Source: Arenicellales bacterium (GTDB lineage Bacteria; Pseudomonadota; Gammaproteobacteria; Arenicellales; JAJDZL01). From it: DNA of 64,000 nucleotides. The position numbers and the translations under genes are program-made. How positions within the stretch are numbered: position 1 is the first letter of the stretch; each line of letters starts with the position of its first letter. The stretch covers positions 768,465 through 832,464 of the forward strand of contig CBDEUN010000003.1 of NCBI GenBank assembly GCA_965243305.1. The letters run 5' to 3'. Shown here piece after piece: positions 1,334 through 43,791 of this stretch. The notes beneath the pieces were generated by a model. The model ran no database searches. It saw only the letters and a program-made list of their open reading frames with translations, and had not been told where the DNA came from.

Positions 1334-1558
1334 ATGATTGATGATGTCATAAATCGAGACCCGGAAATTATGGGTGGCACTCCTGTCTTTTGTGGCACTC
1401 GAGTTCCAATCCGAACTTTATGGGACCACCTAGAAGCAGGGATTCCCCTCGCCGAATTTTTAGCTGATTACCCCACGGTACAACGAGAACAGGCAACTGC
1501 GGTACTGAAACATGCAGCAGACATTCTCTTGGGCGAGTCAAGTAAAACTTCTGCTTGA
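1334..1558 (+). CDS. DUF433-family antitoxin-like protein
   Basis: 74 aa. DPEIMGGTPVFCGTRVPIRTLWDHLEAGIPLAEFLADYPTVQREQATAVLKHA matches the DUF433 pattern (GG.P.i.GTR.pv..l...l..G....eil.dYP.l). Confidence 0.6.
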   Translation: MIDDVINRDPEIMGGTPVFCGTRVPIRTLWDHLEAGIPLAEFLADYPTVQREQATAVLKHAADILLGESSKTSA

Positions 1559-1657
1559 TGAATCTATTGCTCGGCAACTAAGTCGATTTTTCCGGACAAT
1601 TATGAGGTCTACACCGTCCAACAAATGGGTTGAGTAGGAAGTAAAAACGGTGAATAA
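1542..1657 (+). pseudogene. Remnant of a DUF5615 (Mut7-C/PIN-like) toxin partner of DUF433
   Basis: It overlaps the DUF433 stop and reads V(GTA)KLLLDESIARQLSRFF, then needs a frameshift to continue PDNYEVYTVQQMG*VGSKNGE*. The start codon is lost, there is one frameshift and an in-frame TGA where W is expected, and it is truncated at about 38 codons by the adjacent intron stub. Confidence 0.4.
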
Positions 1658-1888
1658 CGCCAATGCCTTCTCACCCACCTTGAACGCCTCGTATGCAATT
1701 TCTGTTCATCAGCTCAGTGGTTTACCTTCGCCTTCCTTCAAATTCCACTTCTCTACGGACACCCTTACCGTTCGGCTAACAGTTCCCTTATCGGGCCGGT
1801 AGCAGACCGCACCGCTAAGTCATCCGATCTCCACCACGTGAAATCGGAATAGCGCCTGTCACGGGGCTGCGCGCCATTCCTAACGCAC
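1658..1888 (-). mobile_element. Group IIC intron, 5' fragment (first ~230 nt of domain I only)
   Basis: The minus strand starts GTGCG four nt after the T-run of the 1893-1920 terminator hairpin. It contains ...ACTGTTAGCCGAACGGTAAGGGTGTCCGTAGAGAAGTGGAATTTGAAGGAAGGCGAAGGTAAACC...CTGATGAACAGAAATTGCATACGAGGCGTTCAAGGTGGGTGAG. From memory this closely parallels domain I of the Oceanobacillus iheyensis group IIC intron (ACAGUUAGCCUAACGCAAGGGUGUCCGUGGCGACAUGGAAUCUGAAGGAAGCGGACGGCAAACC...). No domains II-VI or reverse-transcriptase ORF follow. Confidence 0.6.
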
Positions 1889-1892
1889 CAAC

Positions 1893-1920
1893 AAAAAAGC
1901 GGCCCGCAGGCCGCTTTTTT
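1893..1920 (-). terminator. Rho-independent terminator (bidirectional A6-stem-T6), 3' end of the tracrRNA candidate
   Basis: aaaaaa GCGGCC cgca GGCCGC tttttt: a perfect 6-bp GC stem with a 4-nt loop, flanked by A6 and T6. Confidence 0.7.
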
Positions 1921-1978
1921 AATGTTGCGAAATCTCACTTGTTAATCTCAGCAGTGAGACCTCATTTCCCTAACGAGC
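1893..1978 (-). ncRNA. Candidate tracrRNA of the type II-C system
   Basis: The minus strand of 1941-1970 is GGGAAATGAGG-TCTCACT-GCTGAGATTAAC. GGGAAAUGAGG pairs perfectly (11 bp) with crRNA repeat nt 13-23 (CCUCAUUUCCC). GCUGAGAUUAAC pairs with repeat nt 1-11 (GUUGUCUCAGC; 11 bp including one G-U, with one bulged U). A 7-nt tracr bulge separates the two. Downstream is AAGUGAGAUUUCGCAACAUU, then the intrinsic terminator GCGGCC-UGCG-GGCCGC-UUUUUU. An extended -10 TGGTATAAA lies at 1981-1989 (minus). The 5' end is not determined. Confidence 0.6.
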
Positions 1979-2034
1979 ATTTTATACCATCTCAAAGCAT
2001 GTAATCATATTGTTAGTCGATAATTCATTTGATT

Positions 2035-3371
2035 CACTAGTGTCCCGTTAAATTATCGAATAAATTCAATTGTTTAAGAGACGGCCTCGGTTCTGGTTTG
2101 GGATTGTAATTTGCAAGTAGTTGAATTAGTGTCATTTTCTCAAATAAAGTCGTATCAAGAACCTGGCAGAAAGTGTAGAGATTTTCCTTGAAATTCACTC
2201 GTTTCCTGATGATCGCAAGTAACACATAAACCGAAACAGCAATCCAGATTTGTGTTTTGACGGCATTTTCGCTGGTACCGTAGAACGATTTGATTCGCAG
2301 GTGCTGTTTGATCCACTTAAAGAAAAGCTCCACCTGCCATCTGTTCCTGTATAGTTCAGCAATAGTCAGCGCCGGCAGATATGTATTGTTGGTCAGGAAA
2401 ATCAGACTCTTGTCCCGCTCGCGGTCGACATACCTGATGCGTCTGAGTTTATCCGGATAACGCTTCGCACTTTTGGTCCCGGTCAGCACACCGCTCTGAT
2501 CATAGATCAACCCTTCATTCCTGTCGTTTGCATGCGAGTACAGGCGGCGGAATTGGGTGTTGGATTTGGCACGCACCACAAAGTAGCTGCCGTAGCGGTG
2601 AAACGTGTGCAGGCGCTCGTAATCAAGGTATGCCCGATCCATCACATAGATGGCGCCGGGTTCTGGCAGCAGGGCATCAAGAACGTTGACATCATTGAGC
2701 TTCGCTTCGGTGATTTCGATGAATGAGGGGATGTTTCCCTGTAAATCCAATAATGTATGCAGCTTGATGCCGGATTTGGTTTTGCGAAACCGTGCCCACG
2801 GAAACACCGACAGGCACAGATCGATGGTTGAGGAGTCGAGGGCATAGATGGTTTCCTGAAGATTCAGCCCGCTGTCTTGCGGGCCATACAGTGGCCGAGC
2901 TTGTGCGATCAGGTGTTGCGCAAAGTCGGCATACAGGCGCCAGTCGCGATTTTCATTCGCTTTGGCCAGCGTGCTTCTCGACACCCCGCCGGGCAAACCC
3001 AAGTGGTACAGTTTGTCGTGATGGGTACGCAGGCAAACCACCAGATCGCGTAAACTGCTGCGGCGATTCAACTGCGCAATGGCCATGGCCCGGTATTGTT
3101 GTGAGCAATAAAAGGATTGAACTTTGTGATCGCCCCGGTAGCGATCCACACAGCGGTGAAACGATTTCCATGGCAGGTGGGCCATAAGCTGCGAAAAAAT
3201 GAACTTTCCCTCGTACATGATGGGTATACTCCTGATTGATAATAACTCGGTTTGGAGGGTTATTCGAGACCACTGCTTTCGCTGAAGTCTCGGACACCCT
3301 CCAACAGGGGTTTATATTATTGAAATCAATCAGATACACCACTGTTTTCTCAAAACAACGGGACACTAGTG
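2035..3371 (-). mobile_element. IS4-family insertion sequence (1337 bp)
   Basis: Perfect 15-bp terminal inverted repeats CACTAGTGTCCCGTT (2035-2049 and the reverse complement of 3357-3371). Flanked by a 9-bp direct duplication CATTTGATT (2026-2034 and 3372-3380). Contains one transposase ORF. Confidence 0.85.
2037..3218 (-). CDS. IS4-family DDE transposase (DUF4372-type N-terminus)
   Basis: 393 aa. The N-terminus FSQLMAHLPWKSFHRCVDRYRGDHKVQSFYCSQQYRAMAIAQLNRRSSLRDL is typical of DUF4372. DDE region: YALDSSTIDLC ... YVMDRAYLDYERL ... YRNRWQVELFFKWIKQHL. Confidence 0.85.
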   Translation of the reverse strand: MYEGKFIFSQLMAHLPWKSFHRCVDRYRGDHKVQSFYCSQQYRAMAIAQLNRRSSLRDLVVCLRTHHDKLYHLGLPGGVSRSTLAKANENRDWRLYADFAQHLIAQARPLYGPQDSGLNLQETIYALDSSTIDLCLSVFPWARFRKTKSGIKLHTLLDLQGNIPSFIEITEAKLNDVNVLDALLPEPGAIYVMDRAYLDYERLHTFHRYGSYFVVRAKSNTQFRRLYSHANDRNEGLIYDQSGVLTGTKSAKRYPDKLRRIRYVDRERDKSLIFLTNNTYLPALTIAELYRNRWQVELFFKWIKQHLRIKSFYGTSENAVKTQIWIAVSVYVLLAIIRKRVNFKENLYTFCQVLDTTLFEKMTLIQLLANYNPKPEPRPSLKQLNLFDNLTGH

Positions 3372-3579
3372 CATTTGATTTGTTAATTTGTTTGCAACGC
3401 TAGGTCGCTAGCTGCGGATCAATGAACCGGATAATGATCGTCTATGAGAGGTTATTCTTTTTGATGTAATATAACAAACATCATAAATCTAAATCTAAAA
3501 TTTCGACCATCAAATACAGCACTTTCAATTTGATTTCACCACTGTAGGCGTTCTTTCACCTGCTTCGATTAGGTACTTT

Positions 3580-6500
3580 ATGATGCAATATAGACTGGGA
3601 CTTGATATCGGCACTAACTCAATAGGATGGGCAGTTTTGGAAATTGGGGATGACGGTGAATTTCACAGCATTGTTTCGAGCGGAGTAAGAGTTTTTTCTG
3701 ACGGCAGAGACCCAAAATCCAATTCCACTCTCAAAGCTACTCGTCGCGAGGCTAGATCAATGCGACGACGCAGAGACCGTTATCTTCAGAGACGAACCTA
3801 TCTGTTGAACGAACTGACTAAATGTGGACTGTTCCCTAGCGAGACGGATGAACGATTGAAACTTCAAACTTTAAATCCACTGGAATTGAGAGCGAAGGCA
3901 CTGGAAACTAAGTTACCGCTGTATCACATTGGTCGTGCTCTGTTTCACATTAACCAGCGGCGCGGGTTCAAAAGTAATCGAAAGGACAAAAGCAAAGAAG
4001 TAAAAACTGGAAAAATCGCAGAGTCCTCTCGAAAACTACTTGAACAGATGGAATTAATTGAAACTGAGACAAACCAATCACTCTCTAGTGAAAAGAAATC
4101 GTCCACTGGAGAAAGAGTAGCGAGCAAGCGTCAATGCGCGATGGAACAACTAAAAAACAGAAAGGATCTATCGTTTGGATCATTCTTATGGAAACGCCAA
4201 CAAATGGGATTGCCCACAAGAGCGAGACCAAACAGTGACAGCAAACTTTATGACGTTTATCCGACCCGGGAAATGTTGGAAGATGAATTCCACAAAATTT
4301 GGGATGCATAAGCAAATAATTACTCTGTTGAACTTACAAATGAATTGAAAGATAGACTGTTTCAGGTGATATTTCACCAAAGAAATCTTAAATCTCAGCC
4401 GATTGGCAAGTGTGTATATCTTCCTAGCGAATTTCGAGTACATCGTGCCATGCCGAGCTTCCAGCGCTATCGAATTTATCAAGAAGTCAACTATCTAGAA
4501 TGGCAAAGTAGTTTGGGTAGAGTCAAACTGATCGAAAATCGGCTTGATCGAGACAGAGTAATTGAAATGCTTGAACGACCTTCGGTAGGAAAAAAACCAT
4601 CTAGTAGGAATTCTCGGATTTCGTTTAATGCTATCAGAAAAGAACTGAAAACAAGGGAAACAATGCTCGAAGATTGCGAATTCAACCTTGAATCAGAAAA
4701 TCGTAAAGAACTCGATGGAAATCAGACATCAATCTTCATGCAACATAGGGAATATGTCGGTTCCGATTGGCATGACTGGTCGCTTGACAAACAAGACAGA
4801 TTTATTGCAATAATTTTGGATGATCAGCTTACTGATCAGGAAGTTTGTGACAGGCTAGTGAATGAGTATGGTTTATCGCCCGAGTCAGCTGAAAATTGCC
4901 TGAACGCCAATCTGACTGAAGGAACTGCCAACATTTCGGTTCGGGCAGCTCGCATATTGGCCAAGATTATGGAAGTGGATATGTTCTCTCAGTCAGAAGC
5001 TGTGCAAAAAGCATGCGAACTCAATCCGGATTTCCAGAATCCATATGTAAGTCGTCGACGCGGTGAGGTTTTGAAGCAGCTTCCGTATTACGGGGAAGTT
5101 GTTCAAGGTCACATTATTCCAGGTGTGGGAACTGAGGACAATTATCAAGCTCGAATTGGAATGGTTTCAAACCCTACAGTACACATCGCGCTGAACCAAC
5201 TTCGCCTTGTAGTTAATGAACTGATGAGCAGATATGGAAATCCTCAATCAATATCGATTGAATTGGCCCGTGACTTACCGGTTGGACAAGAAGGCCGTAG
5301 TGAAATTTTAAGAAGGCAACGAGAGAATCAAAATCGGAATGAACGCTATAACGAAATTCTAGATGAGTATAACCAGAAGAAAAATCGAGCAAATCGCCTT
5401 CGAATTCAATTATGGGAGGAACAGGGGAAGAAATGTGTATTTACTGGAAAGTCTATCGGAATTTCGAAGTTGTTCAGTGATGCAGTTGAAATTGAACATT
5501 TGATCCCGTTTAGCCAATCGCTAGATGACAGTTTGTCCAATAAGGTAGTTTGTATCCGAGAGGCGAATCGATACAAGAAAAACAGAACCCCATTTGAGGC
5601 ATTTTCAAATAGTGTAGATTACAACTGGAACGAAATTGGAAACCGCGTTAGAGAGTTGCCTAAACCAAAACGATGGCGATTTGATGAAGATGCACTAGAA
5701 AAATGGCACAAGAATGAGCAGGGCAATTTTAGTTCGAGACATTTGAATGATACACGCTACATCAGCCGATTAGCTAGAGAGTATTTGGAGAACATTTGTG
5801 ATTTCAACAAAATTGATGTTGTCACGGGACGACTCACATCCTTATTGAGAGCCACTTGGGGATTAAATTCAGTATTGGGTGAAATTCGCAATGAAACCGA
5901 TGGGGGGAATATCAAGAACAGAGATGATCACCGGCATCACGCGATTGATGCAATCGTAGTGGGTATGACTTCAAAATCCATCATTCAACGCGTATCGACT
6001 GAAGCAAAACATGCTGAAGAACAATTTGACATGTCAAGACTTTTTCCAAAGAAGAAAGGTACAAGTGCCATAGACCCCTGGTATGGGTTTCGTGCAGATG
6101 TCATTAAATCTGTGAGTGAGATAGTTGTGTCTCATAAAGTAAGACAGAAAAATTTAACTCCCAAGTCGGCAGAAGGAAAAAACCGACGAGTAACTGACGG
6201 GCAACTTCACAACGACACCGCATATGGAATTATCGAAGGACCAAACGATAAAGATGTAAGCAAAGTAGTTGTTCGCAAACCAATAGAATACTTCGATTCG
6301 AAGAAAAGGCTACAAAGTATCCGCGACAATTACTTGAAGAGGCGGTTTTTACGAGCGTTTGATAACGATGGCAAGCAAGGAGTGATAGATTTTGCAGGCA
6401 AAAGAGGAATTCGGAGTTTACGGACCATAGAAAACTTATCGGTTATACCCGTAGCAGACTGCAATGGCAAACAATACAAAGCGCACAAAGGAGATTCAAA

Positions 6501-6891
6501 TTGGGGAATTGAAATATTTTCCTTTCCTAAAGGACAAAAAAATTTCGGAAAATGGCAAGGAGTTGTTATTTCCAGTTTTGAAGCGAATCAAGAGAATTTT
6601 AGACCAGGGTTTAGTCGTAGACCACACCCCGCTGCGAAACTCATCATGAGACTTCAGACAAACGAGTGCATTGAAATAGAGGAACAGGGAGAAGTTCGAA
6701 TAATGAGACTGCAGAAGTTCACAAAAAGTGGAGAGATGAATTTCGCACCTGTGAATGAAGCTAATGTCGATTCCAGAAGCAGAGACAAAACATTTCAGTA
6801 CTTGAGTAAGACTGCGAATACACTAAGAAAGGCTGAAGCACGTAAAGTACACATCAGTCCTACTGGTTTGGTCGCTCCTGCGCGTGTTTGA
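3580..6891 (+). pseudogene. cas9: Type II-C Cas9 interrupted by a single in-frame TAA (codon 244); would be 1103 aa if read through
   Basis: ORFs 3580..4311 and 4345..6891 are in the same frame, and no other stop lies between them (..HKIWDA * ANNYSVELTNELKDRLFQVIFHQR..). RuvC-I is LGLDIGTNSIGWAV, followed by an Arg-rich bridge helix (RREARSMRRRRDRYLQRR). RuvC-II is ISIELARDL. HNH is EIEHLIPFSQSLDDSLSNKVVCIREANRYKKNRTP. RuvC-III is DDHRHHAIDAIVVG. No csn2 or cas4 is present, so this is subtype II-C. Confidence 0.9.
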
Positions 6892-6921
6892 CTTGATATT
6901 GAGTACAACCAGTTCACCATT

Positions 6922-7845
6922 ATGGTCGGTCAAATTGTTGAAATTACCAAGCCCGGTCAAAGTCTGAAAAAGTTTTACGGATTTCTTGATGTCCGTGCGA
7001 GCGGAGAGAGTGCTGGGAGGGTTCCGCTTGACGACATTGTTACAGTCATTATCTCGGTACCAGGTTGTTCAATTTCCACAGTGCTAATTCATGAACTCTG
7101 TAAACGGAACATTCCATTGGTTATTTGTGGCGAAAATTTCTTGCCTTCGTCTTTTACTTTGCCTGTGGTTGGATATGGTCGACAGTTTCAAGTAATGCAA
7201 GCTCAGATCAACCTAAAACTGCCTCAGAAGAAACGAGCCTGGCAACAAATCGTTCGTGCAAAAATTAATAATCAGGCAAAAGTGCTTTCCAATATTGGCG
7301 AAGACAGTACACAACTAGAACGTTTCGCCAAAAACGTACAATCCGGTGACAAAGGTAATTTGGAGGCGCAAGCAGCACGTTACTATTGGCAAAGACTTTT
7401 TGGCCGTCAGTTTCGCAGAAGGCAAGATTCAGCCGGAATAAATTCTGCCTTAAATTACGCATATACCATAGTTCGTGCATGTACTGCGAGAAGTGTTGTT
7501 GCAGCCGGATTACACCCAACTCTTGGCATACAACATCGCTCTCCTACGAATCCAATGAACTTGGTAGACGACTTGGTAGAACCGTTTCGACCGATTGTCG
7601 ATTACATGGTTTGGAATATCGGCGAAGACAAGCTGAGAGAGCTTAGCCCAGATATGAAATTGAAACTAGCATCAATTACAACCCTCAGAATCCCAATAAA
7701 ACTGGGGAAAAAGGTAACAGACGAATCTCCACTGTCTCTAGCTTCGGTAAAAATTTGCAAATCATTTGCGAATTATTGTGATGCAAGTTCAAAAGAGTTG
7801 TTGGTTCCTGATCTACCGGGTCCTATGGACTATTTGTATCTGTGA
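6922..7845 (+). CDS. cas1: CRISPR-associated endonuclease Cas1 (type II)
   Basis: 307 aa directly after cas9. Contains ...NLEAQAARYYWQRLF...NSALNYAYTIVRACTARSVVAAGLHPTLGIQHRSPTNPMNLVDDLVEPFRP, the conserved Cas1 C-terminal core. Confidence 0.9.
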   Translation: MVGQIVEITKPGQSLKKFYGFLDVRASGESAGRVPLDDIVTVIISVPGCSISTVLIHELCKRNIPLVICGENFLPSSFTLPVVGYGRQFQVMQAQINLKLPQKKRAWQQIVRAKINNQAKVLSNIGEDSTQLERFAKNVQSGDKGNLEAQAARYYWQRLFGRQFRRRQDSAGINSALNYAYTIVRACTARSVVAAGLHPTLGIQHRSPTNPMNLVDDLVEPFRPIVDYMVWNIGEDKLRELSPDMKLKLASITTLRIPIKLGKKVTDESPLSLASVKICKSFANYCDASSKELLVPDLPGPMDYLYL

Positions 7846-8183
7846 CCAGAAGATTTGAACTTAGCCCATATCGAATAATGTGGCTTTTTGTGATGTTTGA
7901 TTTACCAGTTGGAACGAAACAGGAACGCAAGGAAGCGACTTTATTTCGTAAAAAGTTGCTGAAGCGAGGTTTTGAAATGTCACAGTTTTCCGTTTATCTA
8001 AAGTACTGTGCATCTAAAGAAAAAGCTGAATCTGTTGGTAATCAAGTAGCAGAAATACTCCCAACCGGAGGCAAAGTCGATGTATTAACAATCACCGACA
8101 AACAATTTTCAAACATGCGGCGTTTCTACGCAAAAAATAAAGTTAAAAATGACCCTCAACCTCGACAATTACATCTATTCTAA
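7842..8183 (+). CDS. cas2: CRISPR-associated endoribonuclease Cas2
   Basis: 113 aa with a GTG start overlapping the cas1 stop. LFVMFDLPVGTKQERKEATLFRKKLLKRGFEMSQFSVYLKY is a typical type II Cas2 N-terminus. Confidence 0.85.
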   Translation: MTRRFELSPYRIMWLFVMFDLPVGTKQERKEATLFRKKLLKRGFEMSQFSVYLKYCASKEKAESVGNQVAEILPTGGKVDVLTITDKQFSNMRRFYAKNKVKNDPQPRQLHLF

Positions 8184-8217
8184 GGGTTATTTCCAAAGCA
8201 GTTTGAGAAATAACCCT
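8183..8217. terminator. 11-bp perfect hairpin between cas2 and the first repeat (possible bidirectional transcription stop)
   Basis: AGGGTTATTTC (8183-8193), a 13-nt loop, then GAAATAACCCT (8207-8217). It starts right after the cas2 stop. There is no clear U-run on either strand. Confidence 0.35.
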
Positions 8218-10797
8218 AGCAATATCAATCACTTCTCAGCGATAAGATTATATCTGGGGGGAAATGAGGCGCTGAGACAACTTTCAATCGACTCATGTTT
8301 GGCCTGCTTATGGATTATATCTGGGGGGAAATGAGGCGCTGAGACAACATTATCGGCATCGTGTGCGAGAAGTGAAAAGATTATATCTGGGGGGAAATGA
8401 GGCGCTGAGACAACCCTCATAATCGGCTGCAGAATCGAATAAGTGATTATATCTGGGGGGAAATGAGGCGCTGAGACAACGATCATCCAGCTCATCCTGC
8501 AGCTCGCCGAGATTATATCTGGGGGGAAATGAGGCGCTGAGACAACTAGCTGAATCCTCGATTGAGGCCAGTTTGTGATTATATCTGGGGGGAAATGAGG
8601 CGCTGAGACAACTTTCGACCGGCTCGGCAAGCCGCGGATCAGGATTATATCTGGGGGGAAATGAGGCGCTGAGACAACGAGCAGCGTAAAAACGCTAACA
8701 CGGGCTTTCGATTATATCTGGGGGGAAATGAGGCGCTGAGACAACGAGTAGGTGTATCTCCGTGAGATATTTCTCGATTATATCTGGGGGGAAATGAGGC
8801 GCTGAGACAACCGGATCGGGGTGGACATGCCGATGGTCGAGGATTATATCTGGGGGGAAATGAGGCGCTGAGACAACATTCTGTTGGCTGTTCCTGATGC
8901 GCCTGGAGATTATATCTGGGGGGAAATGAGGCGCTGAGACAACACTTTCGTCCAGTGTGATTTTCTGTTTGCGGATTATATCTGGGGGGAAATGAGGCGC
9001 TGAGACAACTGATATCCTCAGCCTCGGCGACCGACGCGCGATTATATCTGGGGGGAAATGAGGCGCTGAGACAACTGAACACGCTGGGCACTGGCCGGAC
9101 GCGTAGATTATATCTGGGGGGAAATGAGGCGCTGAGACAACTAAATACCCTTTCTTCTTTGCGGTGTCATCGATTATATCTGGGGGGAAATGAGGCGCTG
9201 AGACAACTTGTTTGAGGTTTTTCCTATTTCGTTGTCAGATTATATCTGGGGGGAAATGAGGCGCTGAGACAACTCCACGCCGCCGCGCTCGAAAACGACT
9301 TTGGATTATATCTGGGGGGAAATGAGGCGCTGAGACAACTCCTTCAGCTGCTTGGCCGTCTTGTCGTAGGATTATATCTGGGGGAAATGAGGCGCTGAGA
9401 CAACCACTGCCGATCGGGCGAAAATCAGGATCCGGATTATATCTGGGGGGAAATGAGGCGCTGAGACAACTCCCGGACGGGAGTGGGACCATGCTGCATC
9501 AGATTATATCTGGGGGGAAATGAGGCGCTGAGACAACATTCAAGCTGAGCCATACAATCTGATCCTGGATTATATCTGGGGGGAAATGAGGCGCTGAGAC
9601 AACTTATAGTTGACTGCATCGCCGTTGAACGGGGATTATATCTGGGGGGAAATGAGGCGCTGAGACAACTCCGGGAGGGTGGTGATGTAATCTTTGTAGG
9701 ATTATATCTGGGGGGAAATGAGGCGCTGAGACAACGCAACCTTGTCGACAACCGTCTCGCGGATCGATTATATCTGGGGGGAAATGAGGCGCTGAGACAA
9801 CTCAGTTAATATTCAATTAGTGCGATTGACCGATTATATCTGGGGGAAATGAGGCGCTGAGACAACTATCCATCCTTCAACACTGGAATTAAATGCGATT
9901 ATATCTGGGGGGAAATGAGGCGCTGAGACAACGCATCCTTTCGAGTGCTGGTCCGCTTTTCAGATTATATCTGGGGGGAAATGAGGCGCTGAGACAACTC
10001 AGATCAGCCCACAATCACGTATTCGGTAGATTATATCTGGGGGGAAATGAGGCGCTGAGACAACATCCAATCTGAGCCATACAATCTGATCCTGGATTAT
10101 ATCTGGGGGGAAATGAGGCGCTGAGACAACGCTTTCTGCAGTTTGATTTTCGTCCTGTTCGATTATATCTGGGGGGAAATGAGGCGCTGAGACAACTGAA
10201 AAGCGTATCCAGAGCATTTGAAAAAAGATTATATCTGGGGGGAAATGAGGCGCTGAGACAACGATCGTCCAGCTCATCCTGCAGCTCGCCGAGGATTATA
10301 TCTGGGGGGAAATGAGGCGCTGAGACAACTCTTTTTTCATCACTTTCCTGTTGATGAGAGATTATATCTGGGGGGAAATGAGGCGCTGAGACAACGCACC
10401 TCCGCCAGTCTTGCTATAGAAATTAGATTATATCTGGGGGGAAATGAGGCGCTGAGACAACTATTTCAGTCCCCTCGACGTATAGCTCACGGATTATATC
10501 TGGGGGGAAATGAGGCGCTGAGACAACCCGGCAACATTCGTCTAATCGCCCGCTGTAGATTATATCTGGGGGGAAATGAGGCGCTGAGACAACCGTCCTT
10601 TGTCCTGTAAGGTACGACCGAACGATTATATCTGGGGGGAAATGAGGCGCTGAGACAACCGTCCTTTGTCCTGTAAGGTACGACCGAACGATTATATCTG
10701 GGGGGAAATGAGGCGCTGAGACAACTATGTGATTGAACGATATGAGCTAGGTATGGATTATATCTGGGGGGAAATGAGGCGCTGAGACAACCTACAA

Positions 10798-12555
10798 CCC
10801 TAATCCTCAGTTAGAGACTGCCAGCGGCGGCTAAGGCGAGATTTTCGGCACTCTGGCGGTTCGAAGCGCCAGGATTTTCCAAACCATCAAGCCACACACC
10901 GAAATCGGTGACCATTTTACCCGGCTGAACCCACTGCGAAGCGAATCTGGCGGCTCAGCAGCAAATCCGGCGCAAGCCTGTCCCTGACAGTAGACTGACT
11001 GCCATGATCTGTAGTGTAAAGCCGTTTCAGAACGAATGAGAAGTCAGGACAGGCTGCAGCGGCGGATGGCCCAAAGCGACTGTTCCAGGACAGGAAGTTT
11101 GGCCGCACTGACTTTCAGGGTCCACTGCCGCGCATGGCGAACCACCTGTCCGGCCATCGCATACAGTCGGTGACGGAAACTGATCGCCCGCACGCCATAC
11201 CACTCCTGCGGCAGTTTCATGCGCATCAGCGCAAGCAGATTGAAGGCAATCGAAGACAGAAGCAGGTACGCGACATTGGCTTTGAACTCGCCGCACGGCA
11301 GATGCGCCGCGCTGAAGTCACTGCGAATTTCCTTGAGCCGGTTTTCCGAGCTGTCCCCTCTCTGGTTGTACCACCATACAATCTCGCCGTCACTGAAGCG
11401 GTCCAGGTCCAGATCGGTCGCAATCGCCCGGTAGATGTACCTGCCGCTGACCGCACTTTGCACATCGACCTGGTGCAGGCCTTCATTTTTGAAAACCATC
11501 TTCAGCTGCTCAGTCCCGTCAGGCATCCCAGCGTCGGCCGGCAGCTTGTCCCGCACCCATTTTTTCTGCACCACCAGACAGAAAGCCTCAGGCACATCTT
11601 CCATCACATGCAGCGTACGGGCCAGATACTCGCCTTCCAATACCGCACCGTCGGCATTCACAACCGCATTCCAATCCTCATCCTTAATGTCCAGTACCGT
11701 TTTCTTCACCGCACTGTCCATCTTCGCCCGAATCGCAAAACGGATGCCGTGTGCGCGGCAATCATTGATGATGCCCGCCTGATAGGAGGCGGCATCGGCC
11801 CGGAAGCGAGTGACACCCACCCCTTCGGGCAGCGCCGCGCGGCAGCGCCGGAAAAACTCAACATTCTCAGCCCCAGGCGGCACATTGCCCTCGCGAAGCT
11901 CAGCCGCAGCCACCTGACCGGTCTCGGCAATGTGACCGAACATCGGCATGTACCCGCGATGCTTCTTATACGTCCACTTCGCGTCTTTTTTCTTCGACCG
12001 AATCGCCGATGCGTCAATGTCCAAAGTGACGCACTTTCGATCACCCAGCGTCGCTTTCATCACCGCGCGGTTGACCTGCTCGAGAACCGAGATCATCTGT
12101 CGACTGTCGCCGACTCTGTGAAGCCATCCACCCAGCGTCGTGGCACAGGGAATCGTCCCAAAACCCAACAGCTTCATCAGCGCCGGTTCACTGCGCAGGT
12201 GGCGCACATCGTCGATGCACCCCGCACCTTCGTGGAACATCAGCATGAAGGTATTGAAAATGGCGCTGTGCCGGTAGCCTCGATTGCTGCCGGGTGTGGG
12301 CATTGACGAATCAATGAGCTGTGACAGCTCAAGGCGCTTGAGCAGTTCGGCTGGCACCACCAGACCGGCTCTGGAGGTGAAATTGTGGCAGCTTGCCGCA
12401 GTGTTGTATGGTAGAATCTTCATAAGCCTTGCGAAATCTGAGAGCCGTTTCGAATTCACCCATTGGGTGAATGCCGAATTGGGCGTTTTTTTCAATATCT
12501 CTCTGATTTTACAGGGCTTTATCATTTTCTGCAACTTTTTATTTGCGGATCAGGG
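10798..12555 (-). mobile_element. IS1380-family insertion sequence, copy A (1758 bp), inside CRISPR spacer 39
   Basis: The ends are CCCTAATCC... and ...GGATCAGGG (imperfect inverted repeats starting CC). The 5-bp TSD TACAA lies at 10793-10797 and 12556-12560. Removing the IS and one TSD copy restores a 30-nt spacer, CTACAAGCGCATTATTCATAGCGCGTCTCT. Confidence 0.9.
11044..12534 (-). CDS. IS1380-family DDE transposase (copy A)
   Basis: 496 aa. VTLDIDASAIRSKKKDAKWTYKKHRGYMPMFGHIAETGQVAAAELREGNVPPGAENVEFFRRC ... RFRADAASYQAGIIN ... WWYNQRGDSSENRLKEIRSDF follows the IS1380/ISEcp1-like pattern. Confidence 0.85.
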   Translation of the reverse strand: MQKMIKPCKIREILKKTPNSAFTQWVNSKRLSDFARLMKILPYNTAASCHNFTSRAGLVVPAELLKRLELSQLIDSSMPTPGSNRGYRHSAIFNTFMLMFHEGAGCIDDVRHLRSEPALMKLLGFGTIPCATTLGGWLHRVGDSRQMISVLEQVNRAVMKATLGDRKCVTLDIDASAIRSKKKDAKWTYKKHRGYMPMFGHIAETGQVAAAELREGNVPPGAENVEFFRRCRAALPEGVGVTRFRADAASYQAGIINDCRAHGIRFAIRAKMDSAVKKTVLDIKDEDWNAVVNADGAVLEGEYLARTLHVMEDVPEAFCLVVQKKWVRDKLPADAGMPDGTEQLKMVFKNEGLHQVDVQSAVSGRYIYRAIATDLDLDRFSDGEIVWWYNQRGDSSENRLKEIRSDFSAAHLPCGEFKANVAYLLLSSIAFNLLALMRMKLPQEWYGVRAISFRHRLYAMAGQVVRHARQWTLKVSAAKLPVLEQSLWAIRRCSLS

Positions 12556-13132
12556 TACAAGCGCATTATTCATAGCGCGTCTCTGATTATATCTGGGGGG
12601 AAATGAGGCGCTGAGACAACTAAGTCACACCTATCACCGAAAAAAGATCAGATTATATCTGGGGGAAATGAGGCGCTGAGACAACTCTGGCCCAGGGCGG
12701 CTCCGCGTTGGAGGTGATTATATCTGGGGGGAAATGAGGCGCTGAGACAACCACTCGACATCAACAGTGTAGTCGGCGGAGGATTATATCTGGGGGGAAA
12801 TGAGGCGCTGAGACAACGCTGCCACTGTGGTGCACCGCCAGTGCTTGAGATTATATCTGGGGGGAAATGAGGCGCTGAGACAACTAAGGCGGCTGCATCA
12901 CCCGTCGGGGTTTCGATTATATCTGGGGGGAAATGAGGCGCTGAGACAACTTATTCATATTTGTCTGACATTGCAGTCGGGATTATATCTGGAGGGAGGG
13001 GGAATGAGGCGCTGAGACAACCAGAATAGATTTTCTACTCTGTAATTGTCAGCGTGATACTTCTAGAATGAGTTTATCAGGAATGATGCAATAGCATTAA
13101 AACTTCTTCTACAACGTCATGTAATCCAAAGA

Positions 13133-14005
13133 TCAGTTAGTGTTATCATTTCGTTGACCTACAAGTGCGCCCCACTCACCCATACACTCAGTAAAAAAAC
13201 TAAAGGTATGCGCGTATGTGTTGCATACCTGGTCGATTTGCGATTGTAGAAAGCCGGACAAAATCAACCAGCCAACAGGCCGGGTTAACCGAATCAATTC
13301 ATCACTCAAACCAACTAGTGCATCTGCAAATATGTTCGCAACAACGATGTCCGCCTGAAATGAGTTTGGAAGTTCTGCGGGTAAACTGCACCGATATTTG
13401 CCATCGACACCGTTTAGCACCGCATTATCCCGACTGTCTGTCAGTGCATCTGGATCAATATCAATGCCCCATGCAAACTCCGCACCTAGTTGCAATGCAG
13501 CTATCGCCAGAACCCCGCTACCGCAACCATAGTCAATAACGCTGCATCCCTTAAGTTCCATACCCGAAAGTAGCTTTGCACACAACCAGGTCGTTTCATG
13601 ATGACCGGTACCGAAAGAAGTTCCAGGGTTGATAATTATGCTCATCCGATCATCTTCAGAGATGTCATGCCAGGGAGCGATAATTCTTAAGTATTGACCT
13701 ACCTCAACAGGTTCCAGATTCTGCTGTGATTCGCCAACCCAATCCCGATCAGCGAGCAGAGCTTGAGTGACTTGAAAGTTTTGATCCTTAGATCTGAACT
13801 TTTCTACTTCCGCCTGAACCGACGGCAACCCCTCGAAATCCGGACTGTACAAAGCTTCAACACCTGTACGTTTAGAATCTGAAACCAGGGTGGATACTGA
13901 AAGTGCACCCGAATCCTCCAGGACTGCGCTAATCAAATCGGCTTGCTCACTGAGACAATCGATATAGATTTTCACCCAACCGGGATTGCCCGAAATCGCT
14001 GTCAA
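13133..14005 (-). CDS. prmA: Ribosomal protein L11 methyltransferase
   Basis: 290 aa. [22 protein letters not shown]...[20 protein letters not shown]. Sits downstream of accBC as in other gammaproteobacteria. Confidence 0.85.
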
Positions 14006-15342
14006 TTGTTCAGGGAACGCTCCAGGTAGTTGATATCAACGATACCACGCCGAAATTTATTTTTTCCAAGGACTTTCTGATGCAGTGCCGTTGTTGTCTC
14101 AACCCCTTCAATCACCAGTTCTTCCAAAGCACCTCGCATCCTAGCGAGTGCTTCATTTCGATCGCTTCCATAAGTAATAATCTTTGCGATCAATGAATCG
14201 TAATGCGTGGTGATCTCGAAATTGGTGTAAATATGAGAGTCAATTCGCACACCTGGTCCACCTGGTGGATGGTAACGGGTGATGACACCCGGGGAAGGCA
14301 TCAGCGATTCGGGGTGCTCAGCGTTGATCCGACATTCAATAGAATGGCCGGTAATCTTGACTTCGTCCTGAGTCATTCGCAACGGTTCTGAAGCTGCAAT
14401 TCGAATCTGTTCCTTGACAATATCAATGCCTGTTACAAATTCGGTCACTGTATGCTCAACCTGTACGCGGGTGTTCATCTCAATAAAGAAAAACTGCTCA
14501 CCATCGTACAGAAACTCAAATGTTCCCGCACCAAGATAGCCAATTTCTTTACACGCTGCAACACAGCTTTCTCCCAACTGACGGCGTTGTTCGTCGGGGA
14601 TTCCAAATGCTGGCGCTTCCTCAATGAGTTTCTGTCGACGTCTCTGAATGGAGCAGTCCCGGTCACCAAGATAAATGGCATCTCCATAGCTGTCTGCTAG
14701 TACCTGAATCTCAATGTGCCGGGGATTATTCAAGAATTTTTCCATATAGAGTGTTGAGTCTCCGAATCCGTGACTCGACTCACCTTGTGAAATCGCAAGC
14801 GCGTTTTCGAGTTGTGATTCGTCTTCAACCAAACGCAGTCCCTTGCCTCCACCTCCAGCAGCAGCCTTGATCAGAATTGGGTATCCGATCGCTTTGGCTT
14901 GCGCTTTAATCTCATCAAGATCGTTGCCTAGTGCACCACCCGAACCGGGCACACACTGCAGTCCTGATTTTTCCATGGTTTTGATCGCCGCGATTTTGTC
15001 ACCCATGAGACTAATCGAAGCGGCTGAGGGGCCGATAAAAATGAAACCGCTTTGTTGAACGCGCTCCGCAAAGTCTGAATTTTCGGCCAAGAACCCATAG
15101 CCGGGATGAATGGCACTGGCATTCGTCACTTCTGCTGCGGCAATGACTGCAGGAATATTCAGATAGCTCTGAGTTGCCGAAGCTGGACCAATGCAAACCG
15201 ATTCATCAGCAAGTTTTACATATTTGGCATCCCGGTCAATCTCCGAGTGCAGAGCAACGGTGGCAATTCCAAGATCGCGGCAGGCGCGCAGGATACGAAG
15301 GGCAATCTCGCCACGATTGGCGATAACAACTTTTTCGATCAT
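14002..15342 (-). CDS. accC: Acetyl-CoA carboxylase, biotin carboxylase subunit
   Basis: 446 aa. [26 protein letters not shown]... with an ATP-grasp core and [14 protein letters not shown]. Confidence 0.95.
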
Positions 15343-15791
15343 TCACTCAAAATGAACAGCGGTTCACCATACTCAACCGGGTCGCCATTGTCTTTCAGAA
15401 TTTTTAGAATGGTTCCGCTGTGCTCAGCTTCAATCTGATTGAAGATTTTCATCGCTTCAATCAGACACAATGGCTGGCCTACAGTTACCGAATCCCCAAC
15501 TTTCACAAAGGCGTCATCCGTAGGTGAAGGAGAGGAAAAAAACGTTCCAACCATGGGCGAAAGAACCGAAATGGTGTGCTCATCTTCAACTTCGTCGTCA
15601 TCCACATGAATTTCACTCAATGACTGAGTATCTGGCATCGGAACATGAACAACCTGCTGTTGGGGTGAACCCGGCAGTGTCGACGTCGCCCGTGAAAGCC
15701 GGATGGATTCTTCGCCTTCGTGAATCTCAATCTCGGTTAAATTGGTATGATTGAATATCTCAATTAGCTTTCTTATTTTTCGAAGATCCAT
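15339..15791 (-). CDS. accB: Acetyl-CoA carboxylase, biotin carboxyl carrier protein
   Basis: [11 protein letters not shown]... and the biotinylation motif [18 protein letters not shown] 15791 is preferred over the TTG 15800 used in the ORF track. Confidence 0.9.
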
Positions 15792-15796
15792 ATAGA

Positions 15797-16249
15797 TCAA
15801 CCATTGGCTTTTTCTGCTATATACGAAATGGCAGCCTGTACACCAAACTCGTAGCCCTGGGCACCTAGACCGCAGATGACCCCGACTGCAATGTCTGATA
15901 AAAATGAATGATGACGAAATTCTTCTCTACTAAAGACATTTGACAGGTGGACTTCGATAAAAGGAACTTCAGCAGCAATCATGGCATCCCGTAGCGCCAC
16001 ACTGGTGTGTGTGAATGCAGCGGGATTGATTACGATAAAGTCGGTACCATCTATCGCGGCTGACTGTATGAAGTCAACCAATTCATGCTCCGCATTGCTC
16101 TGTCTGGAAATTAACTCATGCCCTGCCTTCGACGCGATGTCAGTTATGCGCTGATTGATCTCGCCAAGTGTGAGCCCACCGTAAAGGTGCGGTTCTCTTG
16201 TACCGAGTAAGTTGAGATTGGGTCCATGCAGAACCAGAATTTGAGACAT
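15797..16249 (-). CDS. aroQ: 3-dehydroquinate dehydratase, type II
   Basis: 150 aa. [21 protein letters not shown]...[16 protein letters not shown]. Confidence 0.9.
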
Positions 16250-16378
16250 AACTGTATGCAGAAGTTGTAGATAGTATTATTTTAGCCGAAGTTGGACGCT
16301 TTTCTTATAATTTTAAATGCAATAGATTGCATTTTTGTTATTTTTGAAACCGATGGATTAACTAAATCCGGTTCAATT

Positions 16379-16930
16379 TCATTCAATCAGATATTCCAGA
16401 TCCCGCTCATCTAGTGGACCAGCCTTGGTGAAGAATCGTTTCCCGGACTTGTCAAAGGCAACTGAGTACGGCAGTACCGAATCTGTATTCTGGTAATCGA
16501 CCAGCAATTCATTTACAAACGTCTGGTTTAACATTAAAGATGGAAATCTGATCTCGTGTTTCTTCAGAAATAACTTAGCGGGTCCTTCCTGATCGATTAC
16601 GATTCCAATGATCTGAATGGAATTGTGTTCCGAGTTGAATCGGTCTAGAAGTGGCATTTCTTCGACGCAAGGTGGACACCAGCTACCCCAGAAATTGAGC
16701 AGTACCACTTTGTTTGCCCAGTCGTCAACCGTTACCGGACCTGAGTTTAAGACTTTCCAATGTTCTTCAAATTTTCGTAATTGATCAATGGACTGACCAG
16801 GTTTGGCAGGTTCCATTATCCATTTGTGCCAAGTGAGTCCGGCCGCAAGCGACGTCAGTGCGACGCAAAAGACTAGAGCAACGACGATGATTCGCCTTCT
16901 GGAAGAACCTGCACTGGTAGGACCAGACAA
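16379..16930 (-). CDS. Membrane-anchored thioredoxin-like (TlpA/ResA family) thiol:disulfide oxidoreductase
   Basis: 183 aa with an N-terminal TM helix and the active site FWGSWCPPC. Immediately downstream of dsbD. Confidence 0.75.
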   Translation of the reverse strand: MSGPTSAGSSRRRIIVVALVFCVALTSLAAGLTWHKWIMEPAKPGQSIDQLRKFEEHWKVLNSGPVTVDDWANKVVLLNFWGSWCPPCVEEMPLLDRFNSEHNSIQIIGIVIDQEGPAKLFLKKHEIRFPSLMLNQTFVNELLVDYQNTDSVLPYSVAFDKSGKRFFTKAGPLDERDLEYLIE

Positions 16931-16972
16931 AACTGTGAGACCGGATAAGAGTGGTTACTGGTCAGTCTGGAA

Positions 16973-18889
16973 TCAGACTATTGTCTCGACAACCGAGCTA
17001 TATGCAGCAATCTGTGGTAATGGCTGAAAAACATCTCGATTACCGAGCATGCCACCAATCAGGCAAAGTATGCCCCAAATCAGCAATACAACACCTACAC
17101 CTTTCCAAAAATAACGCCAGCCACCAGCGTCCGCCGGCAACTCTTGAGATGCGCCAAGATAGACGCCAGTGACAATGAATAGTGCGCCCCAAAGCAACAG
17201 AACCGGTACATCCGGTAGGTTGCCTAGTAAATAAATGGCAACGGCCAGCAGTAATACGCCAAATCCCTGTTTTAAACGGTCCATCCATGGACCGGCTTTC
17301 GGCAGTGCGATGCCAACACCAAACCCAATGGCAATGAGTATTGCGCCCATTCCCAAAGCCATGGAAGTCATCATGGCCGCACCAAGATATGGATCGGCTC
17401 TAGCGATTGCAATACCAAGTGCTGAAATCAAAAGCGGAGAAACACAGGCGCTGACAACCAGAGCTGACAAGACTCCCAATACGAAAACTGCACCAACTTT
17501 ACCGCCGCCAATTTTCATGCTACTTTCCTGGATTCGTGATTCCAGAACTGCAGGCATTGTGATCTCATAGAGTCCAAACAGCGACAGCGACATAAGAACA
17601 AATACTGCACTCATAATGCCAATCGCCCACGCATTCTGAAAGTAAGCGTTCAGTTGATCACCGGTTGCACCGGCAACAGCTCCGATGAATGCATAAGCAA
17701 CGACCGTTCCGAATACGTAAATGATCGACAGTGTACCGCCGCGCATTCGACTCTCCCCGCCTTGTCCAATGACGATGGAAGACAGTATTGGAATGAGCGG
17801 TAAAACGCATGGTGTAAATGTCAGAAGCAGCCCGGTACCGAATGCTGAAATGACCAACCACCAAAAACTGAGATCCTGGAAGCTTGAGGATTCGTCAGAG
17901 GACCCGGTTTGCACTATCCCGGTAGACGCACTGGCGCTGTCGATCAAGCTTGGAAGACTAATATTGAAAGTCTTGCTGACCGGCGGATAGCAAATCAGAT
18001 CTTTGGCACAGCCCTGATAGAACGCGGTTAACATCAATTCAGATGCTTCAGGTGTGGCGCGAATAAACGGTAATTCGATCTGAAAGTCCCTGGGGTAGAT
18101 GACAACATCACCAAAATATTCATCCGTGAATGCTTCGCCGGGTGGAAATTTCGGCTCCTGTGGCTGAACGTCTCCAGTAGTTTCGAAGTTCAGTTTGTCT
18201 TGGTAAAGATAGTAGCCTTCAGCAACCTGGACGGATACCAGGAGGCTGGACTCGCTGACCGGGACAACGTCAAATTGAAATGCCTGATCAACTTCAAGCA
18301 GGTCATCCGCGGTCACGCTCGGCAAATCTGATAGCAAATCTGACAGAGAACTGATCCCACCAGCAGACTCAGTTGGTTCGGTTGCGGAAAGTTCCTGTGC
18401 CTGTGCTGTCGATATCAACGCCAACGGATTTGAGACTTCGTATTTTGTGGGTGGATAGCAGATGCCAACGGGTTCATTGCACCCCTGTCCCCAAACCGCC
18501 AGTGAAACACCGGTGACCGGTGTTTCAGCAATCAGAGGAATCTGAACTTCAGCATGATCGGTGTAAATGACAACCTCGCCAAAGAACGGATCGTCTTTCA
18601 CAGTCCCTGGTGATGTAACTAACTCACCTATCTCGACGCCTTCAGTTTGAGACTCAACCGCAAACTTGTCCTCATACATGTAGTAGCCGTCCGCAATCTG
18701 CCAACGGGCGATCAGGACATTGTCCGTCCACTCACCGGTGAACGCAAAAGCTTCCTCTGGTGGCAGCAGTTCTTCATCGCTTTGCGCAAGCACACTGGTT
18801 GAACTGCACAGTAGGAGCATAACTGTCAGTGCACCAGTTATCAGTTTGGCAATAGACTGAATGGTTTTTGCTTTCTGCATGTCAGACAA
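16973..18889 (-). CDS. dsbD: Thiol:disulfide interchange protein DsbD variant (two alpha domains plus the TM beta domain, no gamma domain)
   Basis: 638 aa. There are two tandem DsbD-alpha-like modules (..WQIADGYYMYEDK..GQGCNEPVGICYPP and ..VQVAEGYYLYQDK..YQGCAKDLICYPP), followed by the multi-TM core (FTPCVLPLIPILS ... VSACVSPLL). The protein ends without a thioredoxin fold. Confidence 0.8.
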   Translation of the reverse strand: MSDMQKAKTIQSIAKLITGALTVMLLLCSSTSVLAQSDEELLPPEEAFAFTGEWTDNVLIARWQIADGYYMYEDKFAVESQTEGVEIGELVTSPGTVKDDPFFGEVVIYTDHAEVQIPLIAETPVTGVSLAVWGQGCNEPVGICYPPTKYEVSNPLALISTAQAQELSATEPTESAGGISSLSDLLSDLPSVTADDLLEVDQAFQFDVVPVSESSLLVSVQVAEGYYLYQDKLNFETTGDVQPQEPKFPPGEAFTDEYFGDVVIYPRDFQIELPFIRATPEASELMLTAFYQGCAKDLICYPPVSKTFNISLPSLIDSASASTGIVQTGSSDESSSFQDLSFWWLVISAFGTGLLLTFTPCVLPLIPILSSIVIGQGGESRMRGGTLSIIYVFGTVVAYAFIGAVAGATGDQLNAYFQNAWAIGIMSAVFVLMSLSLFGLYEITMPAVLESRIQESSMKIGGGKVGAVFVLGVLSALVVSACVSPLLISALGIAIARADPYLGAAMMTSMALGMGAILIAIGFGVGIALPKAGPWMDRLKQGFGVLLLAVAIYLLGNLPDVPVLLLWGALFIVTGVYLGASQELPADAGGWRYFWKGVGVVLLIWGILCLIGGMLGNRDVFQPLPQIAAYSSVVETIV

Positions 18890-19020
18890 CTATCGAGTGA
18901 GAGATTAGGGATGCACACCGCGTTCGCATGCGCGGTTACGTATGATTGCGATTTTTATAACAGGTTTCATTTTATTGAACACTTCACTCAATCAACAAAA
19001 ATAAAAAAAGTTGCAAAAAA

Positions 19021-19069
19021 GAATGATAATGGTTATCATTAACGCCGCAATTGATAATAATTATCATTT
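19021..19069 (+). promoter_or_regulatory. Two adjacent Fur boxes upstream of the Fe(III) ABC operon
   Basis: GAATGATAATGGTTATCATT (19021-19040) and AATTGATAATAATTATCATTT (19049-19069), compared with the consensus GATAATGATAATCATTATC. They lie 40-90 nt upstream of the 19109 start. Confidence 0.75.
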
Positions 19070-19108
19070 ACAAAAACAAATCGAACACAAATTGTCGAGA
19101 GTACGGAC

Positions 19109-20149: not shown

Positions 20150-20253
20150 AACGACGTCACAAGATTATTTCCATACACAATTTCCTTCTCTTGCAAAATT
20201 GCAGACAGCTAAACAGCGTGTACTCCGTTTGACACACAAGGTTTAGTTTATGC

Positions 20254-20298
20254 ACCTCACTTCGGGGCACAACCCGAAGTGAGGTTATTTTTCTTCTC
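20254..20298 (+). terminator. Strong intrinsic terminator/attenuator after the binding-protein gene
   Basis: ACCTCACTTCGGG (20254-20266), loop GCACAA, CCCGAAGTGAGGT (20273-20285), then TATTTTTCTTCT. Confidence 0.7.
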
Positions 20299-20451
20299 GG
20301 ACCGAACAGTAGTCCTTCCTACATTCTTCGCATCTGCCTGAGCAGTCAACCTTTCGGCTCCGGCGCAAAGTTTTCAGAATCACCTGTACCTCAAATTGCT
20401 ACTACTCAACCGCTCCTCAAACATCTGTTAGAATTCCGTTAAATGTTACTT

Positions 20452-43086: not shown

Positions 43087-43439
43087 TAGATGTTCCTCAT
43101 CAATTAGTCAAAGAGAAACAGATTTTGAAGAGAATTTTTATTCAATTGAAAAATCAGTTTCGGCATTGAAGTCTTCCGCGAAATCAATCGTCGTTGGCTT
43201 GCATGAGGGCGACTCCGTGTTTGCGGCGTGCTACTCGACTATAACTTCGGGAACAGTGATGCGAGTGTTGCAACCAGTACCGCAAGGGCAACGCACAAGA
43301 TTCGCGGCCATCTAATCGAGAGGCGTACCGCTGAATAATTCTTTGCATGAAACTCTTCCATTGGTATCAACACTACAAAGGGAGGAGTTCAGGTGGTGGG
43401 ATATTTTGCGCCACGTTGAAGCCCTCCGCTAAAACGAAT

Positions 43440-43600
43440 GTTTTGGCCTGAAAGAGGGCGGTTCCGGACTAACAGCACTATGGCTGATTACCGTTGCGGG
43501 GGCAGCGCTGGAATTGCGAAGTAGAGAACCGGTTGAACGACTTCGCGCACCAAACTTCCCATTTAAAGTGTTGCCTTGAATTCGGATCAATTCGGCAACA
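43440..43600 (-). promoter_or_regulatory. Cobalamin riboswitch in the btuB leader
   Basis: The minus strand reads AATGGGAAGTTTGGTG(hairpin CGCGAAGT..ACTTCGC)AATTCCAGCGCTGCCCCCGCAACGGTAATCAGCC...TTAGTCCGGAACCGCCC. This matches the conserved AGGGAA / GGTG..AA.TCC / GC.G.CCCCGC.AC.GTAA core and the B12 box. Confidence 0.8.
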
Positions 43601-43791
43601 AACACCTCAAACAGCAGTGCGTCATTATACGGCTACATTTTTCAGTGCAATAATTAATTTTCACTTAGAATCAATAAATCGAGTAGTCGAAGATCACATT
43701 CGGAGGAACACTTTCCGATGTTGCCACCATTCAGGCGCTTGCCACATTAAAACTGTACCTGGCTTTACACAGATTGAACACTGCAGCATTA

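Follow-up and report, generated by a model that had tools for sequence, protein, structure and literature searches.

A nonsense codon in cas9 and probable bystander mobile elements in a type II-C CRISPR-Cas locus of a marine Arenicellales bacterium

A CRISPR-Cas9 locus in the genome of an uncultured marine Arenicellales gammaproteobacterium contains both several mobile elements and a stop codon within cas9. Which of these lesions put the system out of action? The locus lies near the beginning of a 64,000-nucleotide stretch of contig CBDEUN010000003.1 (assembly GCA_965243305.1), here called the window, in a hypervariable hotspot between a gene for an MFS transporter and prmA. The AccC protein encoded in the window is 98% identical to that of an Arenicellales metagenome-assembled genome (MAG), OZ242211.1. 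An earlier interpretation of the DNA letters, the sequence-only reading, described this locus as caught while mobile elements dismantle it. We favor, with a probability of roughly 0.7, the explanation that the locus lost interference, and most likely adaptation as well, through a CAA-to-TAA change at codon 244 of cas9, the mobile elements being bystanders.

The cas genes and the stop codon in cas9

The locus comprises, in order, a trans-activating CRISPR RNA (tracrRNA), cas9, cas1, cas2 and an array of 46 repeats. A fourth cas gene is absent: the 62 nucleotides (nt) from the end of cas2 (8183) to the start of the array (8246) leave no space for csn2 or cas4. Because cas9, cas1 and cas2 are the only cas genes, and because the anti-repeat of the tracrRNA co-varies with the repeat in four lineages, the locus is of type II-C. 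This assignment agrees with the sequence-only reading, the coordinates of which were right to within a few bases and all of the described features of which are present.

The cas9 pseudogene (3580-6891, plus strand; 1103 codons) matches TIGR01865 and the Pfam families Cas9_a, HNH_4 and RuvC_III. Translation of 3580-6894 bears out the single in-frame TAA that had been noticed, at 4309-4311 (codon 244), with no further break, so that the uninterrupted Cas9 open reading frame (ORF) expected of a type II-C locus is missing. In an alignment of the 60 best homologues, glutamine occupies this column in all 60, from which a C-to-T change of CAA to TAA is deduced. The motifs of RuvC-I, RuvC-II, RuvC-III and HNH are all retained (DIGTNS, ISIELAR, EIEHLIP...NKV and HHAIDA). 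The closest database homologue of this Cas9 is 71% identical, and its best matches among solved structures are II-C Cas9 proteins of about 1080-1095 amino acids, including 6JDQ, 6JE3 and 8UZA. Both cas1 (6922-7845, plus strand; 307 amino acids, type II; TIGR03639, 257 bits), which is of equal length in relatives, and cas2 (7842-8183, plus strand; TIGR01573, PF09827) are intact and of full length. Profile matches for the proteins and a Hamming scan for the repeats thus uphold the earlier description of intact cas1 and cas2, preserved Cas9 catalytic motifs and 42 identical repeats out of 46. In the quest for an uninterrupted allele or for a sister strain with the locus, exact-protein look-ups of Cas1 and of N- and C-terminal fragments of Cas9 gave no match, nor did a scan of genome contigs with Cas9 peptides or scans of metagenomes with the exact repeat and with the sequence surrounding the stop, its first base set to N. 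The G+C content of the cas genes (3580-8183) is 37-43%, as compared to 45-50% for nearby chromosomal genes (13-44 kb) and 57% for the transposase gene of an IS1380-family element in the array.

The TAA is preceded by 243 residues, which comprise RuvC-I, the arginine-rich bridge helix and a portion of the REC lobe. Judging from the sequence, it is the sole clearly disabling lesion in the locus, and is expected to abolish interference. Adaptation was probably lost through the same codon: in type II-A systems, the acquisition of spacers depends on Cas9, as work by Heler and by Wei, both in 2015, is said to have found; the residual adaptation that the sequence-only reading allowed for is therefore doubtful. 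An alternative genetic code was ruled out, given that TAA, TGA and TAG all end ordinary genes in the window.

Partial function could also be envisaged, if read-through of the stop or re-initiation yielded a split Cas9, with residues 1-243 and a C-terminal piece reassembling on the guide RNA. The N-terminal piece would carry RuvC-I and the arginine-rich bridge helix, the remainder is in frame, and engineered split Cas9 proteins can work. However, the sequence past the TAA lacks an ATG, and the alternative starts, namely, an in-frame TTG at 4345 and the next in-frame GTG, are preceded by nothing that resembles a Shine-Dalgarno sequence; TAA followed by G is an efficient context for termination in bacteria; and no close relative has a comparable split. 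We consider such residual activity very improbable.

Positions and effects of the mobile elements

The tracrRNA (1889-1978, minus strand; predicted 5' end at about 1974) comprises an anti-repeat (1941-1970) and a terminator hairpin (1899-1914) followed by a T6 run (1893-1898). Its promoter (1981-2008, minus strand) consists of an extended -10 element, TGgTATAAA (1981-1989), and a weak equivalent of a -35 element at about 2003-2008. Homologues are found upstream of cas9 in contigs L001, L002, L004 and L007, the Cas9 proteins of which are 66-71% identical to that of the window. In the alignment of these tracrRNAs, the 3' half is invariant, and the relatives have, in the same position, a promoter with TTGACA, a 17-nt spacing and TATAAA. 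Changes in the anti-repeat compensate for those in each genome's own repeat, for example, CCTCATTTCCC/GGGAAATGAGG in the window versus CCCCTTTTCCG/CGGAAAAGGGG in L002; such compensatory changes are present in L001, L002 and L007. The predicted crRNA (CRISPR RNA):tracrRNA duplex has an energy of -34.6 kcal/mol, the repeat of the window pairs best with its cognate tracrRNA, and the z-score of the tracrRNA fold is -4.96. By these comparisons, the tracrRNA is intact and its core promoter conserved with respect to the four relatives. The complementarity between tracrRNA and repeat also identifies the minus strand as the crRNA strand.

Between this promoter and cas9 lies an IS4-family insertion sequence (IS) of 1337 bp (2035-3371, minus strand). 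It encodes a DDE transposase (2037-3218; 393 amino acids) that scores 276 bits against NF033592 (cut-off, 115 bits), has perfect 15-bp inverted repeats (CACTAGTGTCCCGTT) and is flanked by the 9-bp target-site duplication (TSD) CATTTGATT at 2026-2034 and 3372-3380, all typical of the family and as initially described. A copy 99.9% identical to it is present on another metagenome contig, L091. The boundaries of the element are 26 bp upstream of the tracrRNA -35 element and 208 bp upstream of the cas9 ATG, and we infer that the promoters of both cas9 and the tracrRNA survive the insertion. The cas9 promoter itself was not located: consensus scans of the window and three relatives performed at chance level, and the upstream alignment is weakly conserved. 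In L001 and L007, the same intergenic spacer holds toxin-antitoxin genes beside an intact cas9, so this spacer appears to be a recurrent landing site. The genes concerned are of the PhdYeFM/YoeB type (L001, 9321-9557; L007, 1819-2315).

The second element interrupts the array. In a Hamming scan, 46 repeats were detected, R1-R39 at 8246-10791 and R40-R46 at 12585-13021. Forty-two of these are identical (GATTATATCTGGGGGGAAATGAGGCGCTGAGACAAC); R18, R25 and R41 have G5 in place of G6, and R46 (12981-13021, 41 nt) is degenerate. The first part of the array (8246-10797, minus strand) comprises R1-R39 with spacers 1-38 and ends 6 nt into spacer 39; the second part (12556-13021, minus strand) opens with the last 29 nt of spacer 39, a TSD copy among them, and continues with R40-R46 and spacers 40-45. 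On the crRNA strand, the repeat reads GTTGTCTCAG...CAGATATAATC, with a TATAAT box at the end of every repeat; relatives have TGATATAAT, an extended -10 element, where the window has AGATATAAT. In II-C systems, each repeat carries its own promoter, acquisition of spacers takes place at the repeat nearest the cas genes, and the extra repeat that closes the array at its old end is frequently mutated (PMC12080349). From this architecture and the tracrRNA complementarity, which together orient the array, the end next to cas2 would be the newest, and each repeat of the window would fire its own crRNA. The degeneracy of R46, at the old end, is then expected rather than a sign of damage (PMC12080349).

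Spacer 39 contains an IS1380-family element of 1758 bp (10798-12555, minus strand), with ends CCCTAATCC... and ...GGATCAGGG. Its DDE transposase (11044-12423; 459 amino acids from M38) scores 290 bits against NF033539 (cut-off, 180 bits), its inverted repeats start with CC, and its TSD, TACAA, at 10793-10797 and 12556-12560, is within the 4-5 bp characteristic of the family. Removal of the element and one TACAA copy restores spacer 39 to 30 nt, which corroborates the placement originally given. A second copy (20452-22209, minus strand), in the same orientation, shows a single difference over its 1758 nt and is flanked by a separate TSD, TACTT; L090, L009, L010, L024 and L026 lack this copy, the site being precisely empty in each. 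Given that the second copy is nearly identical and missing in every relative examined, IS1380 appears to be active and both copies young. With perfect TSDs and inverted repeats throughout, and with this second copy, the IS4 and IS1380 insertions both look recent. The two direct copies of IS1380 (10798-22209) bracket 7.9 kb with the last seven repeats, prmA, accC, accB and aroQ. This arrangement is probably stable because recombination between the copies would delete essential genes. At the junction with the array (12555-12591), the TATAAT of repeat 40 points into the transposase gene (start at about 12423), and a CRISPR repeat promoter could drive the IS1380 transposase.

The insertion costs one of the 45 spacers. 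A polar effect on the rest of the array seems unlikely, because TATAAT ends every repeat, as in II-C arrays with a promoter per repeat (PMC12080349). Might the elements nevertheless have inactivated the system, with IS4 severing the promoters of cas9 and/or the tracrRNA, IS1380 blocking the array, and the TAA arising once selection had been relaxed? Both IS elements appear young and at least IS1380 active, no cas9 promoter was found in the retained 208 nt, the repeat of the window lacks the TG of the relatives' extended -10, and IS-mediated inactivation of CRISPR-Cas is documented (PMC10359306). Yet the cas ORFs, the tracrRNA and its core promoter are uninterrupted by either IS, relatives tolerate genes inserted in the same intergenic spacer, II-C arrays are transcribed from every repeat (PMC12080349), the intron fragment next to the tracrRNA could do no harm, and the elements are targeted by no spacer. 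Inactivation by the mobile elements thus seems quite improbable to us, and the C-to-T mutation is left as the only demonstrably disabling lesion, the insertions being at sites that could be tolerated. The sequence-only reading also took these to be elements that the system should restrict; no spacer matched the IS4 element, the IS1380 element or the intron.

The comparison of the array with phage and plasmid collections, for protospacers and a protospacer-adjacent motif (PAM), gave chance-level hits only, and three spacer cores found no protospacer in viral contigs. Spacer 45, the oldest (12951-12980), is identical at 26 of 30 positions to the host aroQ (15882-15911), at a distance of 3 kb (E of 8e-5 in a BLAST comparison confined to the window), with two of the mismatches in the PAM-proximal third; its source may be the chromosome of a related bacterium. 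Spacers of chromosomal origin from related bacteria have been seen in Neisseria II-C systems. Spacers 36 and 37 are identical (10594-10689), spacers 4 and 31 (8481-8510 versus 10263-10293) differ by one base, and spacers 20 and 28 (9538-9567 versus 10065-10094) have 23 nt in common, which suggests repeated sampling of variant targets or duplication within the array.

The third element is a 5' fragment of a group IIC intron (1660-1888, minus strand; about 229 nt), which starts with GUGCG (1888-1884) only 4 nt past the T6 run of the tracrRNA terminator and contains part of domain 1. Its match to Rfam RF02001 (1579-1759, minus strand) scores 49.6 bits against a gathering score of 32 and aligns well only as far as about 1660. 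Over about 234 nt, the fragment shares 79% identity with the 5' end of an IncC-plasmid intron, found on several such plasmids, that carries a reverse-transcriptase/maturase gene (ltrA), and it is 82% identical to an ORF-less intron in L001; both these introns likewise start directly after a hairpin and T-run. The L001 intron, of the same IIC family, is about 870 nt long (6309-7180) and lies some 1.5 kb from the L001 tracrRNA. The 5' GUGYG, the conserved domain 1 and the insertion just past an intrinsic terminator mark the fragment as group IIC, as initially recognized; domains 5 and 6 and a reverse-transcriptase ORF are missing, RF00029 gave no hit, and homology ends at about 1660-1665. This is a dead 5' stub at a normal IIC homing site, with the tracrRNA untouched. 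The stub is probably old, so that the recent date originally given for all of the damage would hold for the two IS insertions, with their perfect TSDs and inverted repeats, and not for the intron.

The truncated end of the intron joins the antisense of a truncated gene for a DUF5615-like toxin (1546-1657, plus strand). This remnant has a frameshift at a T5 run (at about 1587), a TGA in place of a tryptophan codon (TGG to TGA) and a truncation after ...SKNGE; the DUF433 antitoxin-like ORF directly before it (1334-1558) is intact. In L024 and L090, the DUF433/DUF5615 pair is intact, with a toxin ORF of 83 amino acids in L024 and one of 118 amino acids (PF18480) in L090, and homology of the remnant to both ends at 1655.

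Loss of the locus among relatives

A contig from a sister strain, L090, was found by an exact AccC look-up. Its nucleotide identity to the window is 98.3-98.8% toward prmA and 94.4% toward the MFS gene. In place of the segment corresponding to 1656-13011, L090 has 659 nt, among them an intact 3' part of the toxin gene. Beside the prmA flank, a solo degenerate repeat is left, GTTGTCTCAGTGTGTAATTTTCCCGAGATGTAGTC, beginning with GTTGTCTCAG; the 447 nt unique to L090 had no match among the sequences compared. The comparison with sister strains that had been proposed at the outset thus produced neither an uninterrupted allele nor shared lesions; what it brought to light is a deletion of the whole locus with a solo-repeat scar.

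In L009, from another species (about 91% identity), a remnant resembles the flank plus R46, with 29 of 37 positions matching, and is followed by domains 5 and 6 of an intron of the same family and then by unrelated cargo. Rfam detected no intron domain in this gap at E<=1, whereas direct alignment shows canonical domains 5 and 6. The site in L009 has two group II intron 3' ends with domains 5 and 6 (12300-12457 and 15508-15725), in the same orientation, flanking a 3.5-kb cargo that stands in place of the CRISPR locus and includes genes for a solute-binding protein and an endonuclease/phosphatase-family protein. In L010 and L026, only 155-205 nt separate the MFS gene from prmA, and L024 has, along with the intact DUF433/DUF5615 pair, a Fic module at the site. 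The array was probably ancestral at the hotspot, with the locus lost by deletion in the relatives; that two of them keep a solo degenerate repeat indicates that the clade is shedding CRISPR-Cas.

The stub in the window and the intron 3' end in L009 could be two halves of one ancient IIC intron insertion, a conjecture that we put forward tentatively and consider rather doubtful. If it holds, the arrangement of CRISPR-Cas, tracrRNA and intron would be older than speciation, deletions with one endpoint inside the intron would have cost one lineage the whole of CRISPR-Cas and the other its neighboring toxin gene, and a terminator-homing intron would be a recurrent breakpoint for the loss of defense loci.

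The relatives also bear on the question of whether the locus might be functional after all, the TAA being an error of the assembly or consensus, or else a minority allele of the MAG, and the three insertions being tolerated with no essential part struck. One base separates cas9 from an intact ORF; the catalytic motifs, cas1, cas2, the tracrRNA and the 42 identical repeats are pristine; related records bear the names of long-read metagenome contigs (e.g. ctg..._5x_l); and homopolymer error might account for three repeats varying between G5 and G6. Against this stand the rarity of substitution errors and the mere three single-base indels, two of them at gene ends, over about 14 kb compared with L090, on account of which the assembly looks sound. 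In addition, the neighboring toxin gene, too, has a nonsense substitution along with a real truncation, which points to genuine decay at this place, and the clade is demonstrably losing the locus. A functional locus is, in our estimate, unlikely.

Several points weigh against inactivation by the nonsense codon with the elements as bystanders. The TAA is a single base known from the assembly sequence alone, and both the G5 of three repeats and the T5-versus-T6 frameshift of the neighboring pseudogene could be homopolymer errors. In L002, a candidate cas9 promoter precedes the ATG by about 330 nt, farther than the 208 nt kept in the window, and the IS4 element could still silence cas9. Without the TG of the extended -10, the repeat promoters of the window may be weak, in which case, with a promoter at the trailer end, the IS1380 insertion would have a polar effect on 39 spacers. 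Finally, L090 departs further from the window at this site (94% identity toward the MFS gene and about 75% in the prmA-proximal spacer) than elsewhere in the genome; its allele is hence not simply derived from that of the window, and replacement by recombination is a likelier origin for it than a simple deletion.

With these reservations, the explanation that we favor centers on the nonsense mutation at codon 244 of cas9, which would end interference and, most likely, adaptation. The IS insertions and the intron fragment would be bystanders at sites that are tolerable in a working locus, namely, the spacer between the tracrRNA and cas9, one spacer of 45 and the region past the terminator. The clade is shedding the system, and the window would capture one strain part-way through the loss.

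Elsewhere in the window, two cobalamin riboswitches (RF00174) were detected, at 43439-43624 (minus strand, 37.6 bits) and 63021-63214 (plus strand, 101.8 bits).

Comparison with known systems

The locus is a tidy, ordinary case of CRISPR-Cas decay, for which "dismantling by mobile elements" is an overstatement, and it leaves the current understanding unchanged. It offers a natural example of CRISPR-Cas9 leaving a lineage, by a point mutation here and by full deletion with a solo-repeat scar in the sister strain and a neighboring species, together with the caution that a mobile element within a defense locus need not be the cause of its death. It also provides an uncharacterized II-C Cas9 lineage, 71% identical to the closest sequence in the databases, for which the tracrRNA and repeat are assigned with confidence and which could be revived by a single TAA-to-CAA change.

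In its organization, the locus resembles the II-C systems of Neisseria meningitidis and Campylobacter jejuni, with which it shares the order cas9-cas1-cas2-array with no fourth cas gene, a 36-nt repeat that starts with GTTGT on the crRNA strand, an array antisense to the cas genes, a tracrRNA upstream of cas9, a -10 box at the 3' end of each repeat, a mutated terminal repeat at what would be the old end and, beside cas2, presumably the newest spacers. It differs from them in that its Cas9 is distant in sequence (local match with E of about 1e-38 to 1e-42), its cas9 has a nonsense codon, its repeat lacks the TG of the extended -10, and its host is an uncultured Arenicellales bacterium.

The intron fragment shares with bacterial class C introns the 5' GUGCG, the RF02001 domain 1 and a site a few nt past a terminator hairpin and U-run; unlike complete class C introns, it lacks domains 2-6 and the reverse transcriptase, and can neither splice nor move. 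There is nothing unusual about the IS4 and IS1380 elements, the transposases of which exceed the NCBIfam equivalog cut-offs and which have inverted repeats and TSDs of 9 and 5 bp, respectively.

Natural IS insertions that inactivate CRISPR-Cas have already been documented (Nat Commun 2023, PMC10359306). Those cases and the present one have in common IS elements with intact TSDs in the CRISPR-Cas locus of a wild genome, as well as the idea of immunity traded for openness to foreign DNA. The published insertions, however, are in cas ORFs, whereas here neither IS is in a cas ORF and the lesion that would have inactivated the system is a point mutation.

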